The notes beneath the pieces are model-generated. The model saw only the letters and a list, made by a program, of their open reading frames with translations, was not told where the DNA came from and ran no database searches. From a bacterium (lineage in GTDB: Bacteria > Patescibacteriota > Saccharimonadia > Saccharimonadales > JAUPVS01), in contig JAKOXV010000024.1 of the NCBI GenBank assembly GCA_029780855.1, positions 43,275 to 107,274 of the forward strand: a stretch of 64,000 bases of DNA. Direction: 5' to 3'. Positions 2,098 through 29,814 of the stretch are shown piece after piece. Positions within the stretch are counted from its first letter, which is position 1, and the number at the start of each line of letters is the position of its first letter. The translations under genes and the position numbers were made by a program.

Positions 2098-4665
2098 TTA
2101 CCTGAGATGAATGGTGGTACCGTCGTCAGAACTGGGGGATGGTACTATCTGGCTAGTTTCCTGCTTGTTGAAGGGGGAGTCAGTTGTTTTCTTTTTGCGG
2201 CGCCGAGTTCGTTTGCGCTTGGGCTTTTCCGGTACCGGGTCAATCATTACCTCAGTAGCTACCGGGGTAAGGTGCGTTTCAGGTTTTGGATCGGGCTGTT
2301 GAGATTTATCGGCTTGTGGTGGCGTTGGCTTGGGCGATTTCTTTTGATTGTTTTGAGTATTTTTTTGCACGGTATTCGCTAGCTGCTGGGGCGTAATGTA
2401 GCGGTCTTGCACATAGACCTCTACATCGGCACGTGTAATCGCGAATTGCTCACGGCTATGGGCGATTATCTCATCGCTAAAATCATCGGTCTGCTGTGGC
2501 AGATTAAGGCTGAAAGCAGAAAAAGCTGGTACTTTTTCACCATCAATCGTCATACTGATTATAAAATTGCGGTTGTGCATGTGCACTAGATCATACTCCG
2601 TAAACTTGGGCTCAAAGTAGCGAGCCATGGTGCGGGCATCGTCCGCACTGGAACGGAAGGAAATAATTGACCCGACGTTCCCAAACACCGCGTCTTTTAC
2701 CGTATCCATCATCTGTGCAATGTACTGGTTTGCAACCGTCAAGTTCAGGGCATACTTACGGGCTTCTGACAAAATCGTCGCAAATGAATCAGTCGCAAAG
2801 TTCTGGAACTCGTCCACATACAGATAGAACGGAACACGATCTTTTTCATCAATATCTGCACGGGACATTGCACCCATCTGGATTTTGGTTACCATCAATG
2901 CACCAAGCAGCGAAGCGTTATCTTCGCCAATCAGACCTCGGGACAGATTTACAATCAATATTTTCCGATCATCCATAATCTGCCGAATATTAAAGCTACT
3001 CTTGGGCTGGCCGATGATATTCCGCACAATCGGGTTAGCAGTAAAGGCGCCCACCTTGTTCAAAACTGGCGCAACAGCTTCGGTGGCGAACTTATCATTC
3101 CAGCTCGCAAACTCAACGTTCCAAAAATTTATCACTACCGGGTCAGTTACGTGCGAAACAACATCTTTACGGAAACTTTTATCGGTGAGCATTCTGGTAA
3201 TATCCAGCATGGTAGCATCGGGGTACTCAATGAGCGCCAGCAGAGTGTAGCGCAAAATGTACTCCAGCCGTGGGCCCCATGATTCAAACATGCGCTTCAA
3301 GACCCCAATAAGTTCAGATACCGTTGTGGTGCGAAGTTTAGGATCGCCAACTTCCAGAGGGTTAAACGCAATTGGGAAGTCGGTATCAGCAGGATTAAAG
3401 TAAATAACGTCTTTGGCACGTTCACGGGGTATGCGCTTTAGAATGTTGATGGCATAATCGCCGTGCGGATCGATGACCGCAAACCCGTGGGGGCTGTAGA
3501 TATCGGAGATAGTAAGTAGTTCCAGCATACCGGACTTACCGGTACCGGTCTGACCAATGATATAAAGGTGGCGTGAACGGTCCTGCCGCAACAGCCCAAA
3601 CATAGTGTTGTGCCCCCGAAAGTTAGTGACCGCAATAGGGGAGAGGTCGGCATGATATTCATTTCCTTCAACAATCGGCAATGTTGCTGGCGGCTCGGCG
3701 GTAGCGGTCGATGACCACAAGATATTTGGTGTTTCCACGCTGGTATGAGGTAGGTGATACAAACTAGCTACCTCTTCAATATTCATGGTAAAGCCCGGGC
3801 CTTTATAGCGTCGTTCGGCAAATAGCTGGATTCCATGTGGTTCAGCGGTAATGTACTTTTCAGTAAATCCGTTCAGGTAAGTAGAATTAAACTGCTTAAA
3901 ACTGGATATAATCGCCTGCACCCGCATGCGAGCTTGAGAAGGAGAAGTAACCCCCCGGTAGACCAGCCGAATTGCTGCTTCATAGGCTATTTTTTGGCTC
4001 TTTTGTTCAGCGCCACTGATCTGAGCGTTTTGATACTCACTGAGCTGTGCTGGCTTTCCATCAGATTGCTCTGGTGGCGCCCATAGAGCCCCGGCTATGC
4101 CTTTCATGCCGCTACCTTTGGCTGCTTTCATATTAGCAATGTATTTTTCTGTCTTCTTGTACCAGTTTTCTGTTGCTGGCTGAACAAGAACTTGAATCCA
4201 CGCCTCTTCGTTCATCTCAAACTTGGCTAACGTAGCGGTGATCGCAGCCAACGGGTCAACCTCAAAACTGGGAAACGTTTTGATAGGCAACACATCGTTT
4301 TTGGTAAATTTGAGTTCAGCAGTAAGTTGGGTTACGTGATCTTGCTCTGGAGGAACTACGGCGTAATCATCTATTCGTGTTATATGAACAGTAGGGTACT
4401 GGGCGTAAATCTGTTCCTCTACGAAGCTTTCCAGCTCGCGCGGAACCCAAATATAAAAACCGATCCGCTTTTGTTTAACGGCAATTTCCATACTTATTCG
4501 TTCGCGCGCCTGTTTAGAAGATCCGTAGGAAGACAGCAACAACCCATGCACGCTGGCAAACATCTGCTCGGCGGCAAGCTCTTTTTTGTCGTTCGTGCGG
4601 GGAACCTGCAAGAGAAGGGTAACACCGTCGGCGGTATGAGTTGGTGCTTTTTTAAATAGTCGCAT
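2098..4665 (-). CDS. type IV secretion coupling-protein-like ATPase (VirD4/TraG/TraD family) with K/P-rich C-terminal tail
   Basis: 855 aa. Walker A GQTGTGKSG and Walker B-like YLYVDEFQNF. Overall resemblance to T4SS DNA-binding/coupling ATPases. C-terminal ~100 aa are low-complexity (KKSPKPTPPQADK...KRKRTRRRKKK). Confidence 0.75.
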   Translation of the reverse strand: MRLFKKAPTHTADGVTLLLQVPRTNDKKELAAEQMFASVHGLLLSSYGSSKQARERISMEIAVKQKRIGFYIWVPRELESFVEEQIYAQYPTVHITRIDDYAVVPPEQDHVTQLTAELKFTKNDVLPIKTFPSFEVDPLAAITATLAKFEMNEEAWIQVLVQPATENWYKKTEKYIANMKAAKGSGMKGIAGALWAPPEQSDGKPAQLSEYQNAQISGAEQKSQKIAYEAAIRLVYRGVTSPSQARMRVQAIISSFKQFNSTYLNGFTEKYITAEPHGIQLFAERRYKGPGFTMNIEEVASLYHLPHTSVETPNILWSSTATAEPPATLPIVEGNEYHADLSPIAVTNFRGHNTMFGLLRQDRSRHLYIIGQTGTGKSGMLELLTISDIYSPHGFAVIDPHGDYAINILKRIPRERAKDVIYFNPADTDFPIAFNPLEVGDPKLRTTTVSELIGVLKRMFESWGPRLEYILRYTLLALIEYPDATMLDITRMLTDKSFRKDVVSHVTDPVVINFWNVEFASWNDKFATEAVAPVLNKVGAFTANPIVRNIIGQPKSSFNIRQIMDDRKILIVNLSRGLIGEDNASLLGALMVTKIQMGAMSRADIDEKDRVPFYLYVDEFQNFATDSFATILSEARKYALNLTVANQYIAQMMDTVKDAVFGNVGSIISFRSSADDARTMARYFEPKFTEYDLVHMHNRNFIISMTIDGEKVPAFSAFSLNLPQQTDDFSDEIIAHSREQFAITRADVEVYVQDRYITPQQLANTVQKNTQNNQKKSPKPTPPQADKSQQPDPKPETHLTPVATEVMIDPVPEKPKRKRTRRRKKKTTDSPFNKQETSQIVPSPSSDDGTTIHLR

Positions 4666-4807: not shown

Positions 4808-6046
4808 ATGATTGATGATATTGTGCCGCCGGGTCCGCCCGAGCAGCCAAATAAAAATGCGCCGCGAAGCGAAAAACCCCCAAAAACGACTGAACTACCA
4901 AAGAAAGAAGCATCGGAAAATACCGATTCTCATCCTGCAGAGTTTGCAATTTCGGGTCATAAGTACGTCAAAGATCGCCGATCGTTCCGGATTTGGCCGA
5001 GTCATCTGGCCAAGAAATGGCAGATACTTATCGGGGCGGGTATTTTTTTAGTTACCGCTGGAGTTATTGGCGGTATCCTCTGGTATCAGCACACCCACAA
5101 ACCAAAGGTCACTAAACCGGTGGTAGTAACCAAAAAAGCTCCACCGCCGGCGCCCACAACCGTAGCATCACCCCTGACAGGAGTGCAAGTTACACCAGAA
5201 TTGGCTAAACACATCGTAACCGGTGTAATGATAGAGAACAGTCCCGATGCCAGACCTCAGTCAGGCCTCAAGGATGCCGGCGTGGTTTACGAAGCTATCG
5301 CTGAGGGCGGTATAACCCGCTTTTTGGCTCTATTCCAGGAAGCAACGCCCGATTACATCGGCCCAGCTAGAAGTGCCCGGCCATACTACCTTGACTGGGT
5401 ACTGCCCTATGATGCCGGCTATGCTCATGTAGGTGGCAGCCCCGAGGCGCTCGCCCAGATCAAGCAGCTCGGAATTAAAGACATGGATCAGTTCTATAAC
5501 AGCGCCTACTACTGGCGAGTAAGTAATCGTTACGCGCCCCACAATATGTACACCAGCATAGCCAAGCTTAATGAGGGTGAAGCCAAAAAAGGCTGGACAA
5601 CAAGCAACTTTACCGGCTTCGCCCGTAAAGCAAAAGAAGAGCCGGCCGCTACTCCGACCGCCAAGAGTATTGATTTTGCCATCTCTAGTTACCTATACAA
5701 TGTGCACTATGATTATGATGCCGCCACCAATTCTTACCTTAGGAGCGAGGGCGGTAAACCACATATGGACGAAAAGTCCAACTCACAGCTTGCGCCAAAA
5801 GTGGTTATTGCGCTGGGCATGCACCACTCTATAGAGGCTGATGGTTACCACAGCGCCTACGCCACCGTAGGTTCTGGTCCGATGTTCGTGTTTCAGGATG
5901 GCGTACAGACTCAAGGCACCTGGACTAAGGCAGACAGAGGCTCTCAGTTCACCTTTACTGATGCAAACGGCAAGCCGCTAAAACTGAACCCCGGACAAAC
6001 GTGGATAACTATGGTTGAGGGCGCCAGTAGCATTACGGCGCAATAA
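4808..6046 (+). CDS. DUF3048-like secreted/membrane-anchored protein
   Basis: N-terminal TM helix followed by PLTG...ENSPDARPQSGL...VVYEAIAEGGITRFLALF, typical of the DUF3048 family. Confidence 0.75.
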   Translation: MIDDIVPPGPPEQPNKNAPRSEKPPKTTELPKKEASENTDSHPAEFAISGHKYVKDRRSFRIWPSHLAKKWQILIGAGIFLVTAGVIGGILWYQHTHKPKVTKPVVVTKKAPPPAPTTVASPLTGVQVTPELAKHIVTGVMIENSPDARPQSGLKDAGVVYEAIAEGGITRFLALFQEATPDYIGPARSARPYYLDWVLPYDAGYAHVGGSPEALAQIKQLGIKDMDQFYNSAYYWRVSNRYAPHNMYTSIAKLNEGEAKKGWTTSNFTGFARKAKEEPAATPTAKSIDFAISSYLYNVHYDYDAATNSYLRSEGGKPHMDEKSNSQLAPKVVIALGMHHSIEADGYHSAYATVGSGPMFVFQDGVQTQGTWTKADRGSQFTFTDANGKPLKLNPGQTWITMVEGASSITAQ

Positions 6047-11834: not shown

Positions 11835-13259
11835 TTACTCAGGATAGCAGTTACTAAAGTCCGTCTGAAGCGGATGGACCGTCACCGTGGTATCGTCTTT
11901 GTCCATTGCATACCAGGTGTAAACGTGTTCACCTCTTCCTTGTGCTATTTCGTTACCACGAATATACGCCCGGGTATTTTTGGGTGGGGTTTTCAGCCGT
12001 TTCCGCTGTTCGTGCACCGAATTTGTATGTGAAAATCCCTGCCAGCCGGCTACTTTCTTTTTTCTAATCCGCTCAGCTATACCACCACCTATCCAATCCC
12101 AGGCATAATCAAACTTACACATTGTTTCAGAATCGAGTGTCACACCGGCTTTTTCCATTTTCGCTTCCATGGCAACCAATCGTGCAACCGATTCTACGTA
12201 TGGAGCCGTAGCCCGCATATCTCTAGACATAAGGTCGGCCACATCAATTATTTCCCCCAGTACCTGCACACTCTCATCGTCGAGATACCCGACCTCTTCA
12301 TGTGCCTCAAATATCGTTTCTGTTATTCCTCGCAAAATATCAGCCGGGTACAAACTGACCGGCTTCACCTCATTGATATCTGCTTCTACCGTTTTTTCGT
12401 TACCAAAACGTCCAACCGTCTGGGCTGCCTGAATGGGTCGCACTAAATGCGGGATATCTGCTTGCTCCGGAGAAATTTCTAGCAGCTTCACAAAAGCGTT
12501 GGTCAAGACCAGGCTCGCCCGCATGGGCCAGGGAAAGTTTAAGGCATCGCTGGTAACCGTTTCTAACCTGCGCACCCCGATATCAGGCTTAAAGCTCGTA
12601 CGTACTAGCGGCCTGTCCGAATAGCTAGATGCTGAACGGTCAACTTGGTTCGTAACAGACAGACGGGGTGAATGGTGAAAGTGCGTTTCACCGGCAACAT
12701 TTAACAGCAACCCGCCCGAGCCAAACAACGCACCCTTAGCCACATTCAGCGCGGCCAGTTCTGCGATGTCCCAATGTGAAAAATCGGAATCTTCCAGTGA
12801 AGTCGCAGTGTTTATGTGTACACCCCGGGAGCTGCGATTATGATCAACATTGCGGCGGTTAATTTGAAAAGACTTAATTACGCCTTCTTGGAGCAGTAGG
12901 TTCATAGCACCAAACAAGATTTCATCACCATCAAAACTACGCAGAACACACTCCTCAGCGGTTGTTACCTCCGGGGTCGCATACTCTGGACCGCTGGGGT
13001 CAAAATAAAACCGTCCTCCGTTAGAGAGCATTCCAATACTGTTCTTTTTGAGGCCTAACTTCTCAACGCTTGTCGCAATCTGCTCGTAAGGCACCACATC
13101 CTTTTCGTTTTCACCCGGTGCCTGATACAGGCCTAGTTCGCTGTCCAGTGAGTGACATTCACCAATAATTTCCTGACTTTCACCCGTATTGGTGACGACC
13201 ATCATAGAATACTCAGTTTCTATCCCATATAGGGTGGGACTCGGTGTAATTCCTCGCAT
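11835..13259 (-). CDS. Pup-ligase/deamidase family protein (PafA/Dop homolog)
   Basis: YGIETEY, SNGGRFYFDPSGPEYATPE, RGVHINT and RRLETVTSD line up with PafA motifs [32 protein letters not shown] and RRLHVIVGD. ATG 13259 chosen. Confidence 0.8.
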   Translation of the reverse strand: MRGITPSPTLYGIETEYSMMVVTNTGESQEIIGECHSLDSELGLYQAPGENEKDVVPYEQIATSVEKLGLKKNSIGMLSNGGRFYFDPSGPEYATPEVTTAEECVLRSFDGDEILFGAMNLLLQEGVIKSFQINRRNVDHNRSSRGVHINTATSLEDSDFSHWDIAELAALNVAKGALFGSGGLLLNVAGETHFHHSPRLSVTNQVDRSASSYSDRPLVRTSFKPDIGVRRLETVTSDALNFPWPMRASLVLTNAFVKLLEISPEQADIPHLVRPIQAAQTVGRFGNEKTVEADINEVKPVSLYPADILRGITETIFEAHEEVGYLDDESVQVLGEIIDVADLMSRDMRATAPYVESVARLVAMEAKMEKAGVTLDSETMCKFDYAWDWIGGGIAERIRKKKVAGWQGFSHTNSVHEQRKRLKTPPKNTRAYIRGNEIAQGRGEHVYTWYAMDKDDTTVTVHPLQTDFSNCYPE

Positions 13260-13358: not shown

Positions 13359-13433
13359 TGGTGACCTCACGGGGAATCGAACCCCGATTGCCAGGATGAG
13401 AACCTGGTGTCCTAACCGTTAGACGATGAGGCC
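13359..13433 (-). tRNA. tRNA-Glu (anticodon CUC), CCA encoded
   Basis: The reverse complement GGCCTCATCGTCTAACGGTTAGGACACCAGGTTCTCATCCTGGCAATCGGGGTTCGATTCCCCGTGAGGTCACCA folds as a cloverleaf. It has a 7-bp acceptor stem, anticodon loop UUCUCAU, T-loop GGTTCGATTCC, and is 75 nt long. Confidence 0.93.
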
Positions 13434-23580: not shown

Positions 23581-24006
23581 ATGTACAAGCGGTATGTGAT
23601 CGCCGCCCTGGTGTTCTTTGCGCTCATCATGGTTGGGGCCGGCTTCGTCGCCAACAACGACCCGTTTGACACGGGAAGCCCGTGGATGAACTGGCTGACC
23701 CTGAGCGTTGGTGGTTTCATCGGCGTGTTCATCGCCCTGATGACCTTCATCGGCTCTTGGGAGTCGAAGGGAATCTCCGATGAAGGCGAACGTTGGGTGG
23801 TCTTCTGTGTCAGCGTGGTTGGAACGGCGTTCTTCGGAGCCATGATCGTGGGGATCATCCTGGATGGCGCCTCAGATACGTCAGCCCATCTCGGATGGAC
23901 GACCTACGGTGTCTCCCTGATCCTCATGAACGTGGCCTACCTGGTCATGTACCTGATGCCGGAGCCCAAGTCCGCCGATGCCCTCAGCCTGCACCGAGCC
24001 GCGTAG
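23581..24006 (+). CDS. small 4-TM membrane protein (GC-rich cassette A)
   Basis: 141 aa. AAGGAG lies 5 nt before the ATG. Strong GC3 bias (a 60-nt line scored 37/60 GC vs 24/60 in topA). Four hydrophobic helices. No family recognised. Confidence 0.75.
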   Translation: MYKRYVIAALVFFALIMVGAGFVANNDPFDTGSPWMNWLTLSVGGFIGVFIALMTFIGSWESKGISDEGERWVVFCVSVVGTAFFGAMIVGIILDGASDTSAHLGWTTYGVSLILMNVAYLVMYLMPEPKSADALSLHRAA

Positions 24007-24018
24007 GACCATGTCGCC

Positions 24019-24069
24019 GGAGCCGGGGAAATCTTTCTAACGTCGATGACGTTATGAAACCCCGGCTCC
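24019..24069 (+). other. compound GC-rich hairpin after cassette A ORF
   Basis: Outer stem GGAGCCGGGG/CCCCGGCTCC (10 bp) encloses an inner hairpin AACGTC-gat-GACGTT. No U-run follows. Confidence 0.7.
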
Positions 24070-24092: not shown

Positions 24093-24143
24093 CGCTTCCA
24101 TAACTGTGTAGTTATGCTGATGAGTCCAAAAGGACGAAAAGCG
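24093..24143 (+). ncRNA. hammerhead ribozyme, type III topology (copy 1)
   Basis: CGCUU-C17 | CAUAACU-GUGU-AGUUAUG | CUGAUGA | GUCC-AAAA-GGAC | GAA | A-AGCG. All invariant core positions are present. Stem III is 5 bp, stem I 7 bp, stem II 4 bp. Predicted cleavage falls between 24098 and 24099. Confidence 0.9.
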
Positions 24144-24151
24144 TAAGAATA

Positions 24152-24180
24152 TTGACTTATTTACAATTTTAGTATAAAAT
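24152..24180 (+). promoter_or_regulatory. near-consensus sigma70-type promoter inside the hammerhead-bounded unit
   Basis: TTGACT (24152-24157), 17-nt spacer, TAAAAT (24175-24180). It begins 9 nt after ribozyme copy 1. Confidence 0.6.
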
Positions 24181-24444
24181 ACTGTAGTCACAACCAGTGA
24201 CACATCAAGAAGCAGAACCTTTACACCACATACCCAACCAGAAAGGAGCCTTTGGCTCTCTAGTAGTACCAAGGTAAAACCGCACAAATTATACTCTCGG
24301 ATAATTTGCACGGACCACTTGCTTTCCATAGGTGCCGTAGCGGCGCACATGGAAGAAGCAGATGTGAAGAGGAGTGGATACGAATCTTCACCTGCTACAT
24401 GCTACACCTGGCAATACCCCATTGGCCGAGAGGAGAAGATCCCG

Positions 24445-24642
24445 ATGGGTAAGCGGTACACTCTACGTTGCGGATCCCCGCGACCCCAGTTCCGTAACTG
24501 GGAGATCGTGTGGGAGATGCACGGCACCGTCCACTTCTGCACCGTGCAGCTCTCCGTCCGCATTACCGAACCGGAGCTGGTGCGCGCTGCTGCAGACGTG
24601 CCTGACGAGGCCGAGGCCTACATCGTGCCCTTGCTGGCATAG
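24445..24642 (+). CDS. small hypothetical protein, 65 aa (GC-rich cassette B)
   Basis: GAGAGGAGAAG lies upstream of ATG 24445. The frame gives a plausible sequence (MGKRYTLRCGSPRPQFRNWEIVWEMHGTVHFCTVQLSVRITEPELVRAAADVPDEAEAYIVPLLA). The alternative 141-aa frame is R/S/P/C-rich junk. Confidence 0.55.
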   Translation: MGKRYTLRCGSPRPQFRNWEIVWEMHGTVHFCTVQLSVRITEPELVRAAADVPDEAEAYIVPLLA

Positions 24643-24805
24643 ATCAAGCCTACGTGCGAGAGAGAAACGAGTACGGAAACTCGTAAAAAATCCTGTAATA
24701 CTTCGGGGAAGTTCCGGAGCGCCTCCGTTTCAGTGTGTTCGTGCACGATTCGGCCAAAGCGGTCAACTATACCTTTCTCTCTATTCTTCTGCTTCTTGAT
24801 ACACA

Positions 24806-24856
24806 CGCTTCCATAACTGTGTAGTTATGCTGATGAGTCCAAAAGGACGAAAAGCG
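24806..24856 (+). ncRNA. hammerhead ribozyme, type III topology (copy 2, identical to copy 1)
   Basis: Same 51 nt as 24093-24143. Predicted cleavage falls between 24811 and 24812. Confidence 0.9.
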
Positions 24857-24860
24857 TATA

Positions 24861-25046
24861 ATGAAAACTGAAATGGAAACAAAACATCTCATATATATAA
24901 TGGTGGCAATATTTTCTACTCTTGGTGGATGGCTCGGTGGCATCATGGACCACGGTAATTTCTTGGGGATGTGGAGTATATTGCTGGCTGGTATAGGCGG
25001 TTTTGTAGGCGTATACGTAGGCTACAAGATCGGTAACAATACCTAA
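24861..25046 (+). CDS. small Gly-rich membrane protein (GlsB/YeaQ/YmgE-like?)
   Basis: 61 aa, two TM helices with GGWLGG and GIGGFVG motifs. Native low GC. ATG 24873 is an alternative start. Confidence 0.6.
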   Translation: MKTEMETKHLIYIMVAIFSTLGGWLGGIMDHGNFLGMWSILLAGIGGFVGVYVGYKIGNNT

Positions 25047-25129: not shown

Positions 25130-27421
25130 ATGGCAAAAAATCTCGTTATTGTTGAAAGCCCCGCTAAAGCCAAGACTATAGAAAAGTACTTAGGCAAAGA
25201 CTACGTTGTTAAAAGCAGCTTTGGTCATATTCGTGATTTACCCAAAAAGGGAATTAGTATTGCTATCGATAAGGGGTTTGAACCGACCTATGAAGTTAGC
25301 AGTGATAAGAAAAAAGTTGTAGCCGAACTTAAGAAGCTTGCTAAAACAGCCGAAAACGTCTGGCTAGCAAGTGACGAAGACCGCGAAGGAGAGGCAATTG
25401 CCTGGCATTTATGCAAGGCGCTCGGATTAGATGATAAAACGACTAAGCGCATTGTCTTCCATGAGATAACCAAACCAGCCATTTTGAGCGCCATAGAGCA
25501 GCCTAGAACAGTAGATAAAGACCTCGTTGATGCCCAACAGGCTCGCCGTGTTCTAGACCGTTTAGTCGGCTATGAGCTTTCACCGGTACTTTGGAAAAAA
25601 GTACGGACTGGTTTGAGCGCTGGCCGCGTACAATCCGTCGCAGTACGATTGATTGTGGAACGTGAACGAGAAATAAAGGATTTTAACCCTGAAGTTAGTT
25701 ACAAGGTAACGGGGCTATTTGACGCCAAAGGCACCGAACTCCCCGCTGAACTACCGAATAAGCTCGCCGATGAAGTAGCCGCGACGGCATTCTTAGAAGA
25801 CTGCAAACATGCAACATTTAGCGTCTCAGCAATTGAAGCAAAGCCAGGCACCCGCAACCCTAGTGCTCCATTCACTACCAGCAGTCTCCAGCAAGAAGCC
25901 GCCCGCAAGCTTGGCTATTCCGTACGCCAAACTATGACCCTGGCACAGCGGCTGTATGAAAATGGACACATTACCTATATGCGTACCGACAGTACCAACC
26001 TAGCCGGTCAGGCGATTGCCGCCGCCGAAGCCTATATCCAGAAAAACTTCGGTAAGGAGTACCATCAGGTTCGCCAGTATAAAACCAAAGCTGCCGGTGC
26101 ACAGGAAGCGCACGAAGCGATTCGCCCAACCGACTTTGCAGTAACGAGCGCAGGATCAGATGCGCAGCAGAAAAAGCTCTATGAACTCATCTGGAAGCGA
26201 ACGCTTGCGAGCCAGATGGCTCCCGCTAAAATCGAACGGACAGAGGTGAGCATTTCACTATCAAACCGGACCGAAACATTGCTCGCAAAAGGGGAAGTTT
26301 TAACGTTCGACGGCTTCATTAAGGTGTACGGAGGCGGCAAAGACGACACTATCCTACCGCCAATGGGACAAGGCCAGGATCTGCCGCTTGTAAGCATGAA
26401 GGCTACCCAATCATTCAGTAAACCAGCAGCCCGGTATTCTGAGGCAAGCTTGGTGAAGAAGCTAGAAGACTTAGGTATCGGCCGCCCAAGTACCTACGCG
26501 CCGACCATCAGCACCATTCAAACCCGCGGGTACGTCGAGAAAAGTGATCTGGAGGGAACCGAGCGTACCGTTCGAGAACTTACACTTATGAAGGGAAGCA
26601 TCACCACCTCTGATAGAACAGAGGTGACCGGTGCCGACAAAAACAAACTGCTACCAACCCACATCGCTGAGATGACAACCGATTTCTTGGTTAAGCATTT
26701 TGCGTCGATTGTCGATTACGATTTCACCGCAAAGGCCGAAAAAGGGTTCGACGATATCGCCGATGGCAAAGAGAAGTGGAACACCATGATCGCCGATTTT
26801 TATAAAGATTTTCATCCCCTTATTGATAAAGCAGCAGATGTTTCCCGCGAGGAGACTTCACAGGCAAGGGAGCTCGGAAAAGACCCTAAAAGCGGTAAGC
26901 CGGTGATAGCCCGTTATGGCCGATACGGCGCCATGCTACAGATTGGTGAAGCAGAAGACGAGGAAAAGCCTCGATTTGCGCCATTGCCAGATGGAGCGAC
27001 CCTAGAAACGGTCACCTATGACCAAGCCATGGAAATGTTCAAACTACCCCGCACGGTAGGAAAAACCGAAGACGGAGAAGACATTAAGGCAAACGTGGGA
27101 CGGTTTGGTCCCTACATTCAGGTCGGTAAATTGTTTGTATCAATAAAAGGTCAGGATCCACTCACTATTACCGAAGCAGAGGCGCGCCAAGCTTACGGCG
27201 AAAAGCTCAAAAAAGACGCCGATAAGTACATAGCTGAATTTGATAGTGGCATAAAGATTGTAAATGGCCCCTATGGACCGTACATCACAAACGGCAAAAA
27301 GAATGCCCGTATCCCTAAAGAAACCGATCCAAAAAAACTTTCAGAGGCCGAGTGCAAGGAAATACTCGACAAAGCTCCGGATAAAAAAAGACGCTTTACT
27401 CGTCGCAAAAAAACCAGCTAG
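25130..27421 (+). CDS. topA: DNA topoisomerase I
   Basis: 763 aa. TOPRIM start LVIVESPAKAKTIEKYLG, active-site region ITYMRTDS, and a lysine-rich C-terminal tail. Confidence 0.96.
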   Translation: MAKNLVIVESPAKAKTIEKYLGKDYVVKSSFGHIRDLPKKGISIAIDKGFEPTYEVSSDKKKVVAELKKLAKTAENVWLASDEDREGEAIAWHLCKALGLDDKTTKRIVFHEITKPAILSAIEQPRTVDKDLVDAQQARRVLDRLVGYELSPVLWKKVRTGLSAGRVQSVAVRLIVEREREIKDFNPEVSYKVTGLFDAKGTELPAELPNKLADEVAATAFLEDCKHATFSVSAIEAKPGTRNPSAPFTTSSLQQEAARKLGYSVRQTMTLAQRLYENGHITYMRTDSTNLAGQAIAAAEAYIQKNFGKEYHQVRQYKTKAAGAQEAHEAIRPTDFAVTSAGSDAQQKKLYELIWKRTLASQMAPAKIERTEVSISLSNRTETLLAKGEVLTFDGFIKVYGGGKDDTILPPMGQGQDLPLVSMKATQSFSKPAARYSEASLVKKLEDLGIGRPSTYAPTISTIQTRGYVEKSDLEGTERTVRELTLMKGSITTSDRTEVTGADKNKLLPTHIAEMTTDFLVKHFASIVDYDFTAKAEKGFDDIADGKEKWNTMIADFYKDFHPLIDKAADVSREETSQARELGKDPKSGKPVIARYGRYGAMLQIGEAEDEEKPRFAPLPDGATLETVTYDQAMEMFKLPRTVGKTEDGEDIKANVGRFGPYIQVGKLFVSIKGQDPLTITEAEARQAYGEKLKKDADKYIAEFDSGIKIVNGPYGPYITNGKKNARIPKETDPKKLSEAECKEILDKAPDKKRRFTRRKKTS

Positions 27422-27525
27422 CTCTCAAGCTTGTAAAATCATTCTACTCATGGCATAGTACAGATCTAGAGGAAAACCCTCTAGTGTACGCCATTACGTA
27501 CACGTTCGTACCTTAAGGGGGCAAA

Positions 27526-27936
27526 ATGGCGGAGCTGCAACAGAGCACCGAGGCACGGTTGAGCGAACTGATGTACCATCCGGATTCCCGGATACATAAT
27601 TGGGAAGACGAGGTCATGATGCTCGTGTACCGCCTGCTTGGTGAACATCAGCAGGCTACCTGGCGCGAGGCCGAACGGCACTACATGAACTGGTGGGCCA
27701 GCGCTCGGCATATCGACAAGAAGGATCTACAGCGCAGCATCGATTCTCTTCCGGGACTGTCGGTGCACATCAAAGCCGCTCTCCGTCGTGCACACATCAC
27801 CACCATCGGGATGCTTCTGTATCTGACAGATGAAGAGCTGCTGCAGGTCAAGAACATCGGTGAAGCACGCCTCAAGATCATCAATGAGGCTCTCAAGAAG
27901 ACCCGGCTGGCTCGCTACAAGCGGTCCGCACGATGA
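27526..27936 (+). CDS. small protein with RNA-polymerase alpha-CTD-like helix-hairpin-helix domain (GC-rich cassette C)
   Basis: 136 aa with GC3-rich codons. LSVHIKAALRRAHITTIGMLLYLTDEELLQVKNIGEARLKIINEALKK resembles the alpha-CTD consensus (LSVRAxNCLKxAxIxTIGDLxxxTEEELLxIxNFGxKSLxEI). Confidence 0.65.
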   Translation: MAELQQSTEARLSELMYHPDSRIHNWEDEVMMLVYRLLGEHQQATWREAERHYMNWWASARHIDKKDLQRSIDSLPGLSVHIKAALRRAHITTIGMLLYLTDEELLQVKNIGEARLKIINEALKKTRLARYKRSAR

Positions 27937-27949
27937 ATCACCTACCCAT

Positions 27950-27999
27950 GGCCGGAGGGGCAAAACTACTCGAGGCGACACTGTCGCACCCCTCCGGCC
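27950..27999 (+). other. compound GC-rich hairpin after cassette C ORF
   Basis: Outer stem GGCCGGAGGGG/CCCCTCCGGCC (11 bp) encloses an inner hairpin GCGAC-act-GTCGC. This is the same two-level design as 24019-24069 but with unrelated sequence. Confidence 0.7.
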
Positions 28000-28067
28000 C
28001 ACCCCTTAAGGTACACGTTTCAACCTCTCTATTGACTTTTATTATAGATTTCTGGATAATATGTTGC

Positions 28068-28550
28068 ACGTCAAGCAATTGAAGTACCTACTTATTCGTA
28101 ATGATCTAGCAGAGGCACGATGAGGCTATCAACGCCACGTTGGTGTAAACCAGCACAATCGTCGCGTCTCGCATTCCGTGGGAAAAGGAGTGATCCCCAT
28201 TCGGGTAGATCGCCGCTTTCAGCTCAGGCTGTCAGTCCAAGTAGCGAAGCCCTTCAAAAGGCTGCCGCCACCACGGAATGTTCTCCTGCTCGAGTAGGTT
28301 AATGGAGTTGCCCGCTCCAAGCCGACTCGCAGGAACGCGTAGACGACCCATGCTGTCGTCCGCGCTTAGGATGTCCTGGCTCGCGCCAAGTACGCTACCC
28401 GCCAGCCGAAAGGCCGAGCCAGGGCATCCACCACACACTTCAAATTACGACGCGCGAGTTCAGTGCAAGAGAAACTGGTAGTAGCACCAAGGCTTACCCC
28501 TATGGTAGCTCCCAACACTCTTCCACATCTACGAACTCGCTTTTTTCTTT
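28068..28550 (+). ncRNA. candidate ~480-nt GC-rich structured RNA of unknown class
   Basis: Promoter TTGACT (28032-28037) plus TGgATAATA (28053-28061). Helices are 28172-28181/28271-28280 (10 bp), 28369-28383/28415-28429 (15 bp with one U-G that would be A-C on the other strand) and 28342-28347/28355-28360. Closing stem 28454-28461/28533-28540 is followed by T6. No credible ORF on either strand. Confidence 0.5.
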
Positions 28551-28678
28551 ATAGAGGGTATCCTTTGGTTTATCCCCAACTTGCTATCTGTTAAGAGATA
28601 TTTTGTTGTAATGTTGTTATGCTTTATGTGAGCACATAAGTCTATTTCGTGATAAAATAAGTTCATAAAACACTAAGT

Positions 28679-28707
28679 TTGACTTTTAAAAATTAAAGTT
28701 ATATAAT
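28679..28707 (+). promoter_or_regulatory. consensus sigma70-type promoter of the sigma-like gene
   Basis: TTGACT (28679-28684), 17-nt spacer, TATAAT (28702-28707). The 5' UTR contains hairpin AGGGGTA-gggcgt-TACCCCT. Confidence 0.65.
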
Positions 28708-28782
28708 TATACTATTACAGCAGGGAGGGGTAGGGCGTTACCCCTGTTATTACAGAGTATAAGAAAAGGAATAATCATAAAG

Positions 28783-29814
28783 ATGGCAGAGCAGTCCACC
28801 AAAAAAATCGATATTGAAGCCGTTGTTCAAGACGTCCTTGGCGTTATCGAACGGGAACGAGAGCGAGAAATTGTTTCGCGCCGTTTTGGATTGTTTGACC
28901 GCAAAGAAACGTTAGAGCAAATAGGGGAGCTGCTTGGTATAACCCGTGAACGTGTTCGTCAGCTCGAAAAGGCCGTAGTCACTCGTCTCAAGTCTGCTTC
29001 AAAAGATCTGCCACACATGACTGAAATCGAAAATGCCTTTGTAGCCGAACTTGAAGGCATGGGCAATGCCGCTCGGATTAGTGATCTCAGCGCTAAACTT
29101 ACTGAAAAAAACGAACGTACCGACCAAGCCCGCGTTTCATTCTTAGCCGAACTATCCCCTAAACTGGCGGTAATTGATGAGAACGATCATTTCTACCACG
29201 CAGTTGGAATAGCAAAACTACACAACGAAAAACAGATGAAGGATCGCGTTGCTAAAATAATTGACGCCATAAAGACTATTGGAGAACCTACTGGCATTGA
29301 TGCAGTTGCCACGGCCGTTAAAGATAGCGATAAAAGTCATGTAGAAGCACTTGCTAGCACCAGCAAGGCACTCGCAAGTCTGCACGGTCGCTGGGGACTA
29401 GTGAAGTGGCCTATGGTCAACCCTAAAAATATTCGGGACAAAATTTATGTTATTTTGTTTGAAAAGGGCAAACCGATGCACTTCAACGAAATCGCTGGAG
29501 AAATCAAGAAATCAAGCTTTAAGCGCAAGGATGTGACCACCCAGGCAATCCATAACGAACTCATCAAAGATAGCCGTTTCGTACTCATCGGCCGCGGTAT
29601 TTATGCGTTGAAAGAGTGGGGATACAGCAAGGGAACCGTAGCCGATATCATCACCGATGTACTTAAGAAGGCCGGTGAACCCCTGCACCGAGACGAAATC
29701 GTCAAACGCGTCCTCAAAAGTCGCCAGGTAAAAGAAACCACCATTCTGCTTAATCTACAGGGTAAGAGCCAGTTCAAGCGCGTTGCCAAAGCTACCTACA
29801 CGCTCGCAAACTAA
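28783..29814 (+). CDS. sigma-70 region-4-like HTH protein with C-terminal HARE-HTH-like domain
   Basis: N-terminal REREIVSRRFGL...TLEQIGELLGITRERVRQLEKAV is a region-4 signature. The C-terminal PMHFNEIAGEI...FVLIGRGIYALKEWGY resembles a delta-subunit/HARE-type winged helix. Confidence 0.75.
   Translation: MAEQSTKKIDIEAVVQDVLGVIEREREREIVSRRFGLFDRKETLEQIGELLGITRERVRQLEKAVVTRLKSASKDLPHMTEIENAFVAELEGMGNAARISDLSAKLTEKNERTDQARVSFLAELSPKLAVIDENDHFYHAVGIAKLHNEKQMKDRVAKIIDAIKTIGEPTGIDAVATAVKDSDKSHVEALASTSKALASLHGRWGLVKWPMVNPKNIRDKIYVILFEKGKPMHFNEIAGEIKKSSFKRKDVTTQAIHNELIKDSRFVLIGRGIYALKEWGYSKGTVADIITDVLKKAGEPLHRDEIVKRVLKSRQVKETTILLNLQGKSQFKRVAKATYTLAN

Follow-up and report, generated by a model that had tools for sequence, protein, structure and literature searches.

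The topA-to-sig intergenic region of a Saccharibacteria genome (contig JAKOXV010000024.1 of GenBank assembly GCA_029780855.1) holds a G+C-rich segment that resembles a stand-alone gene for a structured non-coding RNA (ncRNA). We studied it in a stretch of 64 000 nt (positions 43 275 to 107 274 of the contig; below, the window, in which position 1 is the first letter), where an initial annotation made from the sequence alone had marked it as a promoter-to-terminator RNA with several long helices and no open reading frame (ORF). In our assessment the chance is about even that the segment encodes an independently transcribed, stable and highly structured orphan ncRNA, carried on a strain-specific insertion of ~1.15 kb at a site where insertions recur. 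What we observe directly is the signals at its two ends, the statistics of its fold, its place in an insertion and the lack of any sign of coding or of a known family.

The segment 28068-28548 was folded on both strands by minimum free energy (MFE). On the plus strand the MFE is -192.8 kcal/mol, with shuffled sequences averaging -143.5 (z-score of -8.1, and -7.9 in a second run), while coding controls from the same window, including the equally G+C-rich ORF upstream of the RNA, have z-scores between +0.1 and -2.0. Three sub-domains are each significant when folded separately (z-scores of -4.9, -6.9 and -3.5), most pairs of the main helices have probabilities above 0.9 (0.73-0.89 for a few pairs at helix ends), and 145 of the 149 pairs are retained when the RNA is folded inside a 780-nt context (27940-28720). 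The predicted fold is well defined and self-contained (Table 1). All main helices listed by the initial annotation were found within 1 nt of where it had placed them, except for one GAAA-loop hairpin: the long-range helix (28171-28181/28271-28281) has 11 bp instead of 10, the 15-bp helix (28369-28383/28415-28429) has its single U-G pair at 28374/28424, and the local hairpin 28342-28347/28355-28360 is extended by GCGU/GCGC at 28337-28340/28362-28365. The GAAA-loop hairpin (GCC-GAAA-GGC, 28405-28414) exists as an alternative 3-bp hairpin but is absent from the MFE structure, in which a GUAA (GNRA-type) tetraloop does occur (28145-28148). A closing helix, P1, was missing from the earlier list: it consists of 28069-28072/28449-28452 and 28079-28085/28437-28443, and links the 5' end to the base of the terminator.

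The boundaries of this fold coincide with transcription signals. TTGACT (28032-28037) and GATAAT (28055-28060), separated by a 17-nt spacer, together have 10 out of 12 consensus matches in our promoter scan; there are only 17 sites with at least 10 matches in the window (both strands counted), and many of them, by our reading of the ORF map, sit just 5' of ORF starts. The two hexamers of the proposed promoter are thereby borne out; its 'extended -10' is not canonical, with the TG abutting the hexamer and none reported by the scan. At the other end, the closing 8-bp stem (28454-28461/28533-28540) followed by UUUUUUC is present in the plus-strand MFE fold as originally described. A promoter on the 5' side, a stem with U6 on the 3' side and no credible ORF between them are the layout of a stand-alone ncRNA gene, which the segment would thus be, and the fold starts 2 nt past the predicted transcription start and stops at the U-tract.

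These signals, and their match to the fold boundaries, are the main argument for the plus strand. Folding favours this strand only mildly: the minus strand has an equal MFE (-193.0 kcal/mol), and its z-score is smaller (-3.2 to -3.8) because it is G-rich, so that its shuffled versions fold better. A strand call from the z-scores was accordingly rejected as decisive. The single U-G pair of the 15-bp helix, which had been cited in favour of the plus strand, is present, but it is a weaker argument than was claimed, given the equal energies and two A-C 1x1 mismatches in plus-strand helices that would be G-U pairs on the minus strand. In favour of the plus strand, 10 G-U pairs stand against these two mismatches.

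No known RNA family fits the segment; the initial annotation, too, had found no fit to RNase P, tmRNA, the signal recognition particle RNA, 6S, a group II domain V or a riboswitch. We used Rfam 15 (4227 models, including RNase P, tmRNA, the signal recognition particle RNA, 6S, group I and II introns, riboswitches, ribozymes and GOLLD, ROOL, OLE, HEARO and raiA): at gathering thresholds the sole match in the whole window is a tRNA (13362-13433), a permissive scan of 27300-28900 (E ≤ 10) gave nothing inside 28027-28556, and ARAGORN found 0 tRNA or tmRNA genes in 27000-29500. Evidence for a protein is likewise lacking: the six frames have no Pfam match even at E ≤ 10 and, concatenated, no match at E ≤ 1 among 5.8 billion proteins, and the gene calls in a public assembly of the same sample include none in this stretch. 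Codon scores are at most 0.01 bit per codon in all six frames, compared with 0.20-0.27 for annotated genes (topA, the ORF upstream of the RNA and a 141-aa membrane-protein ORF). The statement that no plausible ORF is present thus stands, with a period-3 signal in G+C content remaining (see below).

The genomic context was compared with 80 topA loci from GTDB genomes and 80 sig loci from JGI metagenomes (161 related loci at the first nhmmer search and 165 finally; L numbers below denote such loci). The topA relatives place the organism in the Saccharibacteria, order Saccharimonadales, and the gene order dprA, topA, sig is conserved; sig itself (28783-29814) is a conserved gene with sigma region 4 and HARE-HTH. 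The gap between topA and sig is 1362 nt here, 150-380 nt in ~60 related loci and 550-4350 nt in ~30. Conserved sequence 5' of sig resumes at a DnaA-box-like 9-mer: TTATCCACA, with at most one mismatch, is found ~145-245 nt (mostly 160-210 nt) 5' of sig in 39 out of 60 short gaps, where only a short distance separates it from the topA stop codon. In 23 out of 33 expanded gaps, the copy closest to sig is ~160-300 nt 5' of that gene (a 24th has its sole box 2.9 kb away). Because the box usually keeps its position near sig in expanded gaps, inserted DNA falls between the box and the topA stop codon. In the window the 9-mer (TTATCCCCA) is found at 28570-28578, and therefore the RNA and the ORF preceding it, which encodes an RNA polymerase alpha C-terminal domain (alpha-CTD)-like protein, constitute one insertion (27422-28569). 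This agrees with the earlier remark that the RNA directly follows an alpha-CTD-like cassette.

Table 1. Features of the candidate RNA and of the insertion that carries it (positions in the window)
Feature	Positions	Strand	Basis
Candidate ~480-nt structured ncRNA	28067-28546	+	MFE, z-score; no ORF, Rfam, Pfam or protein match
Sigma-70-type promoter, TTGACT-17-GATAAT	28032-28060	+	Promoter scan; predicted start near 28067
P1, 5' arm (CGUC ... UUGAAGU); with partner 28437-28452 closes the multi-helix domain	28069-28085	+	Pair probabilities 0.73-0.98
H2, branched hairpin holding the GUAA tetraloop	28112-28170	+	MFE, sub-domain fold, pair probabilities
H3, 11-bp long-range stem around a multi-branched junction	28171-28281	+	MFE, sub-domain fold, pair probabilities
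H4, extended hairpin with internal loops	28284-28334	+	MFE, sub-domain fold, pair probabilities
H5, 4+6-bp hairpin with 7-nt loop	28337-28365	+	MFE, sub-domain fold, pair probabilities
H6, 15-bp stem (one U-G) with 31-nt structured loop, then ACC	28369-28429	+	MFE, sub-domain fold, pair probabilities
P1, 3' arm	28437-28452	+	MFE, pair probabilities
Terminator-like element: 8-bp stem that encloses a structured 71-nt insert, with U6 after it	28454-28546	+	MFE; sub-domain z-score -3.5
Lineage-specific ~1.15-kb insertion, topA stop codon to DnaA-box-like 9-mer, holding the alpha-CTD-like ORF and the RNA	27422-28569		Gap comparison
Orphan 136-aa alpha-CTD-like ORF (helix-hairpin-helix fold)	27526-27936	+	Pfam PF03118, E = 4.3e-10
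11-bp G+C-rich hairpin with 28-nt structured loop, then CACC; 3' end of the alpha-CTD cassette	27950-27999	+	Same design as 24019-24069
DnaA-box-like 9-mer, right edge of the insertion	28570-28578	+	Position in relatives
Promoter of sig itself, 3' of the RNA terminator	28679-28707	+	11/12 matches; conserved in relatives

We infer from these observations that the RNA would be transcribed, would fold in the cell and may act in trans. RNA polymerase would start near 28067, and the transcript would fold into a domain closed by P1, from which the five helices H2-H6 would radiate around a tight junction (0-3 unpaired nt between neighbours); the long hairpin with U6 would end transcription. Both ends would be buried in helices, which should make the RNA stable. 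Little of it would be left exposed, and what is exposed offers candidates for contact sites: the linker 28086-28111, CUUCAAAA at 28252-28259 and ACCACAC at 28430-28436. The RNA might serve as a scaffold or decoy that binds protein, either RNA polymerase or the alpha-CTD-like protein encoded in the same insertion, a guess from the neighbourhood to which we attach a low likelihood.

Homologues were sought in several ways. The initial annotation had proposed homology searches as a check; nhmmer with the RNA on the 161 loci, then on L164 and L165, and then on all 165 loci found no homologue, and L164 and L165, whose sig genes are the nearest relatives (81% identity), are without the RNA. A single-sequence covariance model of H4-H6 has a best E-value of 0.89 against 100 loci, blastn against phages and plasmids gave no match, and no paralogue of the RNA was found in the window. 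When three 22-mers were compared with IMG/VR, one exact 22-nt match was found (28369-28390, identical to 4840-4861 of L162, IMGVR_UViG_3300038675_000799). Few such matches are expected; this one lies, by our reading, inside a capsid-like ORF of a phage contig with 67% G+C, has no extension and was judged to be due to chance. Complementarity between the RNA and the alpha-CTD mRNA is limited to short matches, and as a region of 1.4 kb yields ~11 such pairs we do not consider them meaningful.

Several points weigh against a functional RNA. The main weakness is the lack of comparative support: no homologue was found in the collections searched, so these offer no covariation and no evidence of selection, and the RNA sequence comes from one metagenome sample of a lineage that has been sampled once. 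A single-copy orphan without covariation support is a lead, not a discovery. The terminator is also non-canonical. A canonical intrinsic terminator is a short G+C-rich hairpin with a loop of 3-8 nt, directly 5' of a run of U; our terminator consensus scan made no call on the closing stem at 28454-28546 because its 'loop' is the structured 71-nt insert. Furthermore, G+C content differs with coordinate phase (0.45/0.60/0.65; chi-square on the fractions, p ~0.004), in a pattern that suits a minus-strand frame that runs through 110 codons with a single TGA as its only stop. Finally, the helices are almost entirely Watson-Crick (10 of the 149 pairs are G-U on the plus strand), and with the equal MFE of the minus strand this structure could belong to the DNA or to the other strand.

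The period-3 signal is possibly a trace of coding ancestry, not a gene, and it leads to the alternative that the segment is what remains, without function, of G+C-rich DNA gained by horizontal transfer (a decayed minus-strand gene, for instance), with fortuitous signals or a functionless transcript. The signal is strongest in 28060-28300, where it equals that of the neighbouring alpha-CTD ORF; G+C is intermediate, low and high at the first, second and third codon positions (GC1, GC2 and GC3) of the minus frame, and this frame is the best of the six by codon score and protein-like apart from its one in-frame TGA. The neighbouring cassette genes are orphans as well, so that a lack of homologues is expected, and the segment is known from one genome. 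But the codon score of the minus frame is ~0, against the 0.20-0.27 of annotated genes, neither a promoter nor a ribosome-binding site or start codon was found for it on the minus strand, and there is no homologue among 5.8 billion or 1.84 billion proteins. Decay would also leave unexplained the z-score of about -8, the helices with probabilities above 0.9 and the match of the fold boundaries to the plus-strand promoter and U-tract. We consider a remnant somewhat unlikely.

It is quite improbable, in our view, that the structure matters at the level of DNA, with nested inverted repeats acting as recombination or insertion substrates, or left as scars of template switching, and the RNA product irrelevant; possible analogues are the hairpin ends of an IS200/IS605-like non-autonomous element and an attC-like cassette site. 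The near-pure Watson-Crick helices with equal energies on both strands would suit such an element, as would the recurrent insertion point with its many unrelated cassettes, the resemblance of H6 to the terminal hairpins of two other cassettes (each then followed by (C)ACC) and a perfect 13-nt inverted repeat that brackets the alpha-CTD ORF. The architecture, however, is a multi-branched junction closed end-to-end rather than a pair of terminal repeats, it includes the 10 G-U pairs on the plus strand, and no second copy was found in the window or in the 165 loci. No adjacent transposase or integrase was seen, without a systematic search for them.

A role in cis has also been considered, as a structured leader or an insulator that would act on sig, tuning read-through from topA and the alpha-CTD ORF by means of its terminator or by transcriptional interference. 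The RNA, topA, the alpha-CTD ORF and sig all have the same orientation, the U-tract ends 24 nt 5' of the DnaA-box-like site and ~130 nt 5' of the sig promoter, and the two promoters have TTGACTTTTA in common in their -35 regions. We regard this role as very unlikely: sig has its own promoter with 11 out of 12 matches, conserved in relatives without the insert, 480 nt of ornate structure far exceed what an insulator needs, and no riboswitch or leader family in Rfam matches. Least credible, to the point of being far-fetched, is a product in the form of small proteins (a 60-aa plus-strand ORF at 28120-28302, preceded by a Shine-Dalgarno-like AGAGG (28111-28115) 4 nt 5' of its ATG at 28120, or a 68-aa minus-strand ORF at 28232-28438): both ORFs exist, but the gene caller is silent there and no homologues were found, the plus-strand ORF has a GC3 of 0.38 with a GC2 of 0.69, a negative codon score and an Arg/Ser/Pro-rich product typical of out-of-frame translation. 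One match of the minus-strand ORF among 1.84 billion representatives (E = 1e-5) was rejected as an artefact (12 weak matches to FN3 repeats).

Returning to a structured ncRNA, we compared the candidate with systems already described. GOLLD, ROOL, OLE, HEARO (the omega-RNA of IscB) and raiA were found by comparative genomics, with many homologues showing covariation, and were of unknown function at discovery. The candidate resembles them in its length of hundreds of nucleotides, in its many helices around multi-way junctions and in its location on variable or mobile DNA (often the case for them); unlike them, it has no homologues that we could find, and it matches none of their Rfam models at E ≤ 10. 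There is no adjacent IscB or TnpB gene, and the only tRNA gene of the window is ~15 kb from the RNA. 6S RNA is a rod of ~185 nt with a central bubble that resembles an open promoter. As with 6S and the mycobacterial Ms1, we have a stand-alone gene from promoter to terminator and a structured RNA (here a predicted one), and its location between an alpha-CTD-like gene and a gene with sigma region 4 and HARE-HTH makes RNA polymerase a conceivable partner, a conjecture from the neighbourhood only; unlike 6S, the predicted structure is a branched junction of 480 nt, and neither 6S (RF00013) nor Ms1 matches in Rfam. Antisense RNAs and type I toxin-antitoxin systems offer another parallel, since the plus transcript would be fully antisense to the sole coding-like frame; that minus frame, however, has no start signals and has an in-frame stop, does not encode a short hydrophobic peptide, and the RNA is far larger (480 nt) than typical antitoxin RNAs. 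The candidate matches no described family and is, in kind, a candidate stand-alone structured ncRNA of bacteria.

The alpha-CTD-like ORF that shares the insertion has a clear period-3 and codon signal, and its sole match among 5.8 billion proteins is itself. A phage origin was considered and rejected, with no PHROG match and no tblastn match to phages. The perfect 13-nt inverted repeat that flanks it (GTACCTTAAGGGG at 27508-27520 and CCCCTTAAGGTAC at 28002-28014) is bordered by ACGTTC / ACGTTTC, its left arm overlaps the Shine-Dalgarno region of the ORF, and its two arms are the only CCTTAAGG sites in the window; the arms could mark the two ends of a small mobile unit as terminal repeats, or could form a long-range mRNA stem. 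The Logan assembly of SRR15686344 is interrupted exactly where the ORF ends, with one contig reaching 27935 and another beginning at 27922; low coverage could be the cause, or a branch in the graph (e.g. from strains that differ at the cassette junction). Three G+C-rich hairpins, all inside inserted cassettes, share one design (a stem of 10-15 bp, a loop of 28-31 nt with an inner hairpin, and then (C)ACC): 24019-24069, 27950-27999 and 28369-28429. No other G+C-rich hairpin in the window combines a long loop with a perfect stem of 10 bp or more, as the first two do.

The region between topA and sig is a recurrent insertion site, with unrelated cassettes in ~30 of 90 related loci and a bimodal distribution of gap lengths. 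Small orphan ORFs are present in most of the inserts, and the G+C content of many exceeds that of the flanking DNA, but some inserts have no ORF and are highly structured, and some end in candidate hammerhead ribozymes as judged by sequence. When all expanded gaps were scored together in windows of 240 nt, 10.6% of these had z-scores below -4, versus none of 81 coding control windows. For example, L165 has a 579-nt insert without a called gene right after topA (3834-4412), which is absent from its sister genome L164 (~89% identical around the insert); the segment 3823-4420 folds with a z-score of -9.1, and the insert has no period-3 signal, a TTGACT-17-CACAAT promoter (3938-3966) and a terminator-like hairpin-plus-U site (4276-4305). 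The 5' hairpin of this insert (GTTACTTTTG...CAAAAGTAAC) recurs in L143 (4775-4800), where the insert at the same spot also includes a very strongly structured segment (4809-4975). In another example, an ORF-less segment of L004 (12330-13240) has a promoter with 12 out of 12 matches, a z-score of -5.7 and a hammerhead at its end. These two inserts, unrelated and ORF-less, repeat the design of the candidate (promoter, structured RNA, 3'-end former) in other genomes, which speaks for its reading as an ncRNA gene. L084 has an imperfect hairpin of roughly 90 bp (5490-5685, z-score of -10.4). A further segment, in L138 (5444-5683, z-score of -7.9), has a strong period-3 signal and may be coding. No sequence similarity was found between the RNA and the other inserts.

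RNA-only accessory cassettes may form a class of their own in Saccharibacteria, so far undescribed, with the RNA as one example, although we rate this as rather unlikely. Such cassettes would be strain-specific and mutually unrelated, would each consist of a sigma-70 promoter, an ORF-less structured RNA and a terminator or type III hammerhead, and would be located between the topA stop codon and the DnaA-box-like 9-mer and also in the gap between dprA and topA. They could spread by natural transformation and could produce RNAs that act in trans, for example against phage or on the host; the segments of L165 (3834-4412), L004 (12330-13240) and L084 (5490-5685) are other candidates for membership. 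Integron attC cassettes offer a parallel, being array-like, unrelated and mostly orphan cassettes at a fixed site, each with a terminal imperfect hairpin; unlike in integrons, the cassettes here carry their own promoters, and no integrase, attI or attC core was seen, the hairpins having been inspected only and no integrase search made.

If real, the candidate would add a large family-less structured RNA to the very small set of ncRNAs from Saccharibacteria and the candidate phyla radiation, and the accessory genome of these reduced epibionts would include RNA genes besides small orphan proteins. The wider picture may outweigh the single RNA: a fixed site by dprA and topA collects unrelated G+C-rich cassettes, several of which are ORF-less and as strongly structured as the RNA, and several of which have hammerhead ends.

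The hammerhead candidates of the window are two 53-nt direct repeats, 100% identical and 713 nt apart (24093-24145 and 24806-24858). In both, the type III hammerhead core is complete (CUGAUGAG-UCC-AAAA-GGA-CGAAA) and stems I and II are closed, with cleavage predicted after CGCUUC; the Rfam Hammerhead_3 model gives 20.9 bits for the two copies (E = 0.13, below threshold). They come after the 141-aa ORF for a membrane protein (23581-24006) and a G+C-rich unit led by a promoter (24152-24800, z-score of -4.3), both of which lie in an expanded dprA-to-topA gap. The pattern CUGAUGA...GAAA is found only at 24117 and 24830 in the window, not in the RNA, and there is no Hammerhead match in 27300-28900. 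Similar type III candidates are found in L004 (~13170-13235), L020 (2969), L049 (736), L107 (2490), L138 (864, 4218 and 4963) and L160 (3428), all on the strand of the flanking genes and most of them intergenic. Those of L004 and L107 and two of the three in L138 (4218 and 4963) lie at the 3' ends of inserted cassettes or close to them, and that of L049 is just 5' of topA; in L049 and L160 a G+C-rich hairpin (with loops of 20 and 19 nt, respectively) lies ~50 nt 5' of the hammerhead. Our literature search found no paper that ties hammerheads or structured RNAs to Saccharibacteria.

The cassettes that end in these hammerheads (the two in the window and those of L004, L107, L138, L160 and L049) are like the candidate RNA in being G+C-rich, lineage-specific, intergenic within dprA-topA-sig and in the same orientation; several have their own TTGACT-type promoter, and some, e.g. 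that of L004, are ORF-less and structured. Unlike them, the RNA ends in a hairpin with U6, has neither the CUGAUGA...GAAA core nor a ribozyme match, and shares no sequence similarity with them.

Two other regions of the window deserve mention. A 61-aa ORF (24861-25046) that starts 3 nt past the second hammerhead copy has the look of a small membrane protein (Gly-rich and hydrophobic) and no Pfam match. At the start of the window, the region 1-2097, which adjoins a gene for a VirD4/TraG-like coupling protein (2098-4665), has 58-64% G+C, a strong period-3 signal and no Pfam match, and includes long overlapping ORFs on both strands (59-1513 and 826-1944 on the minus strand, 820-1914 and 2-934 on the plus strand).

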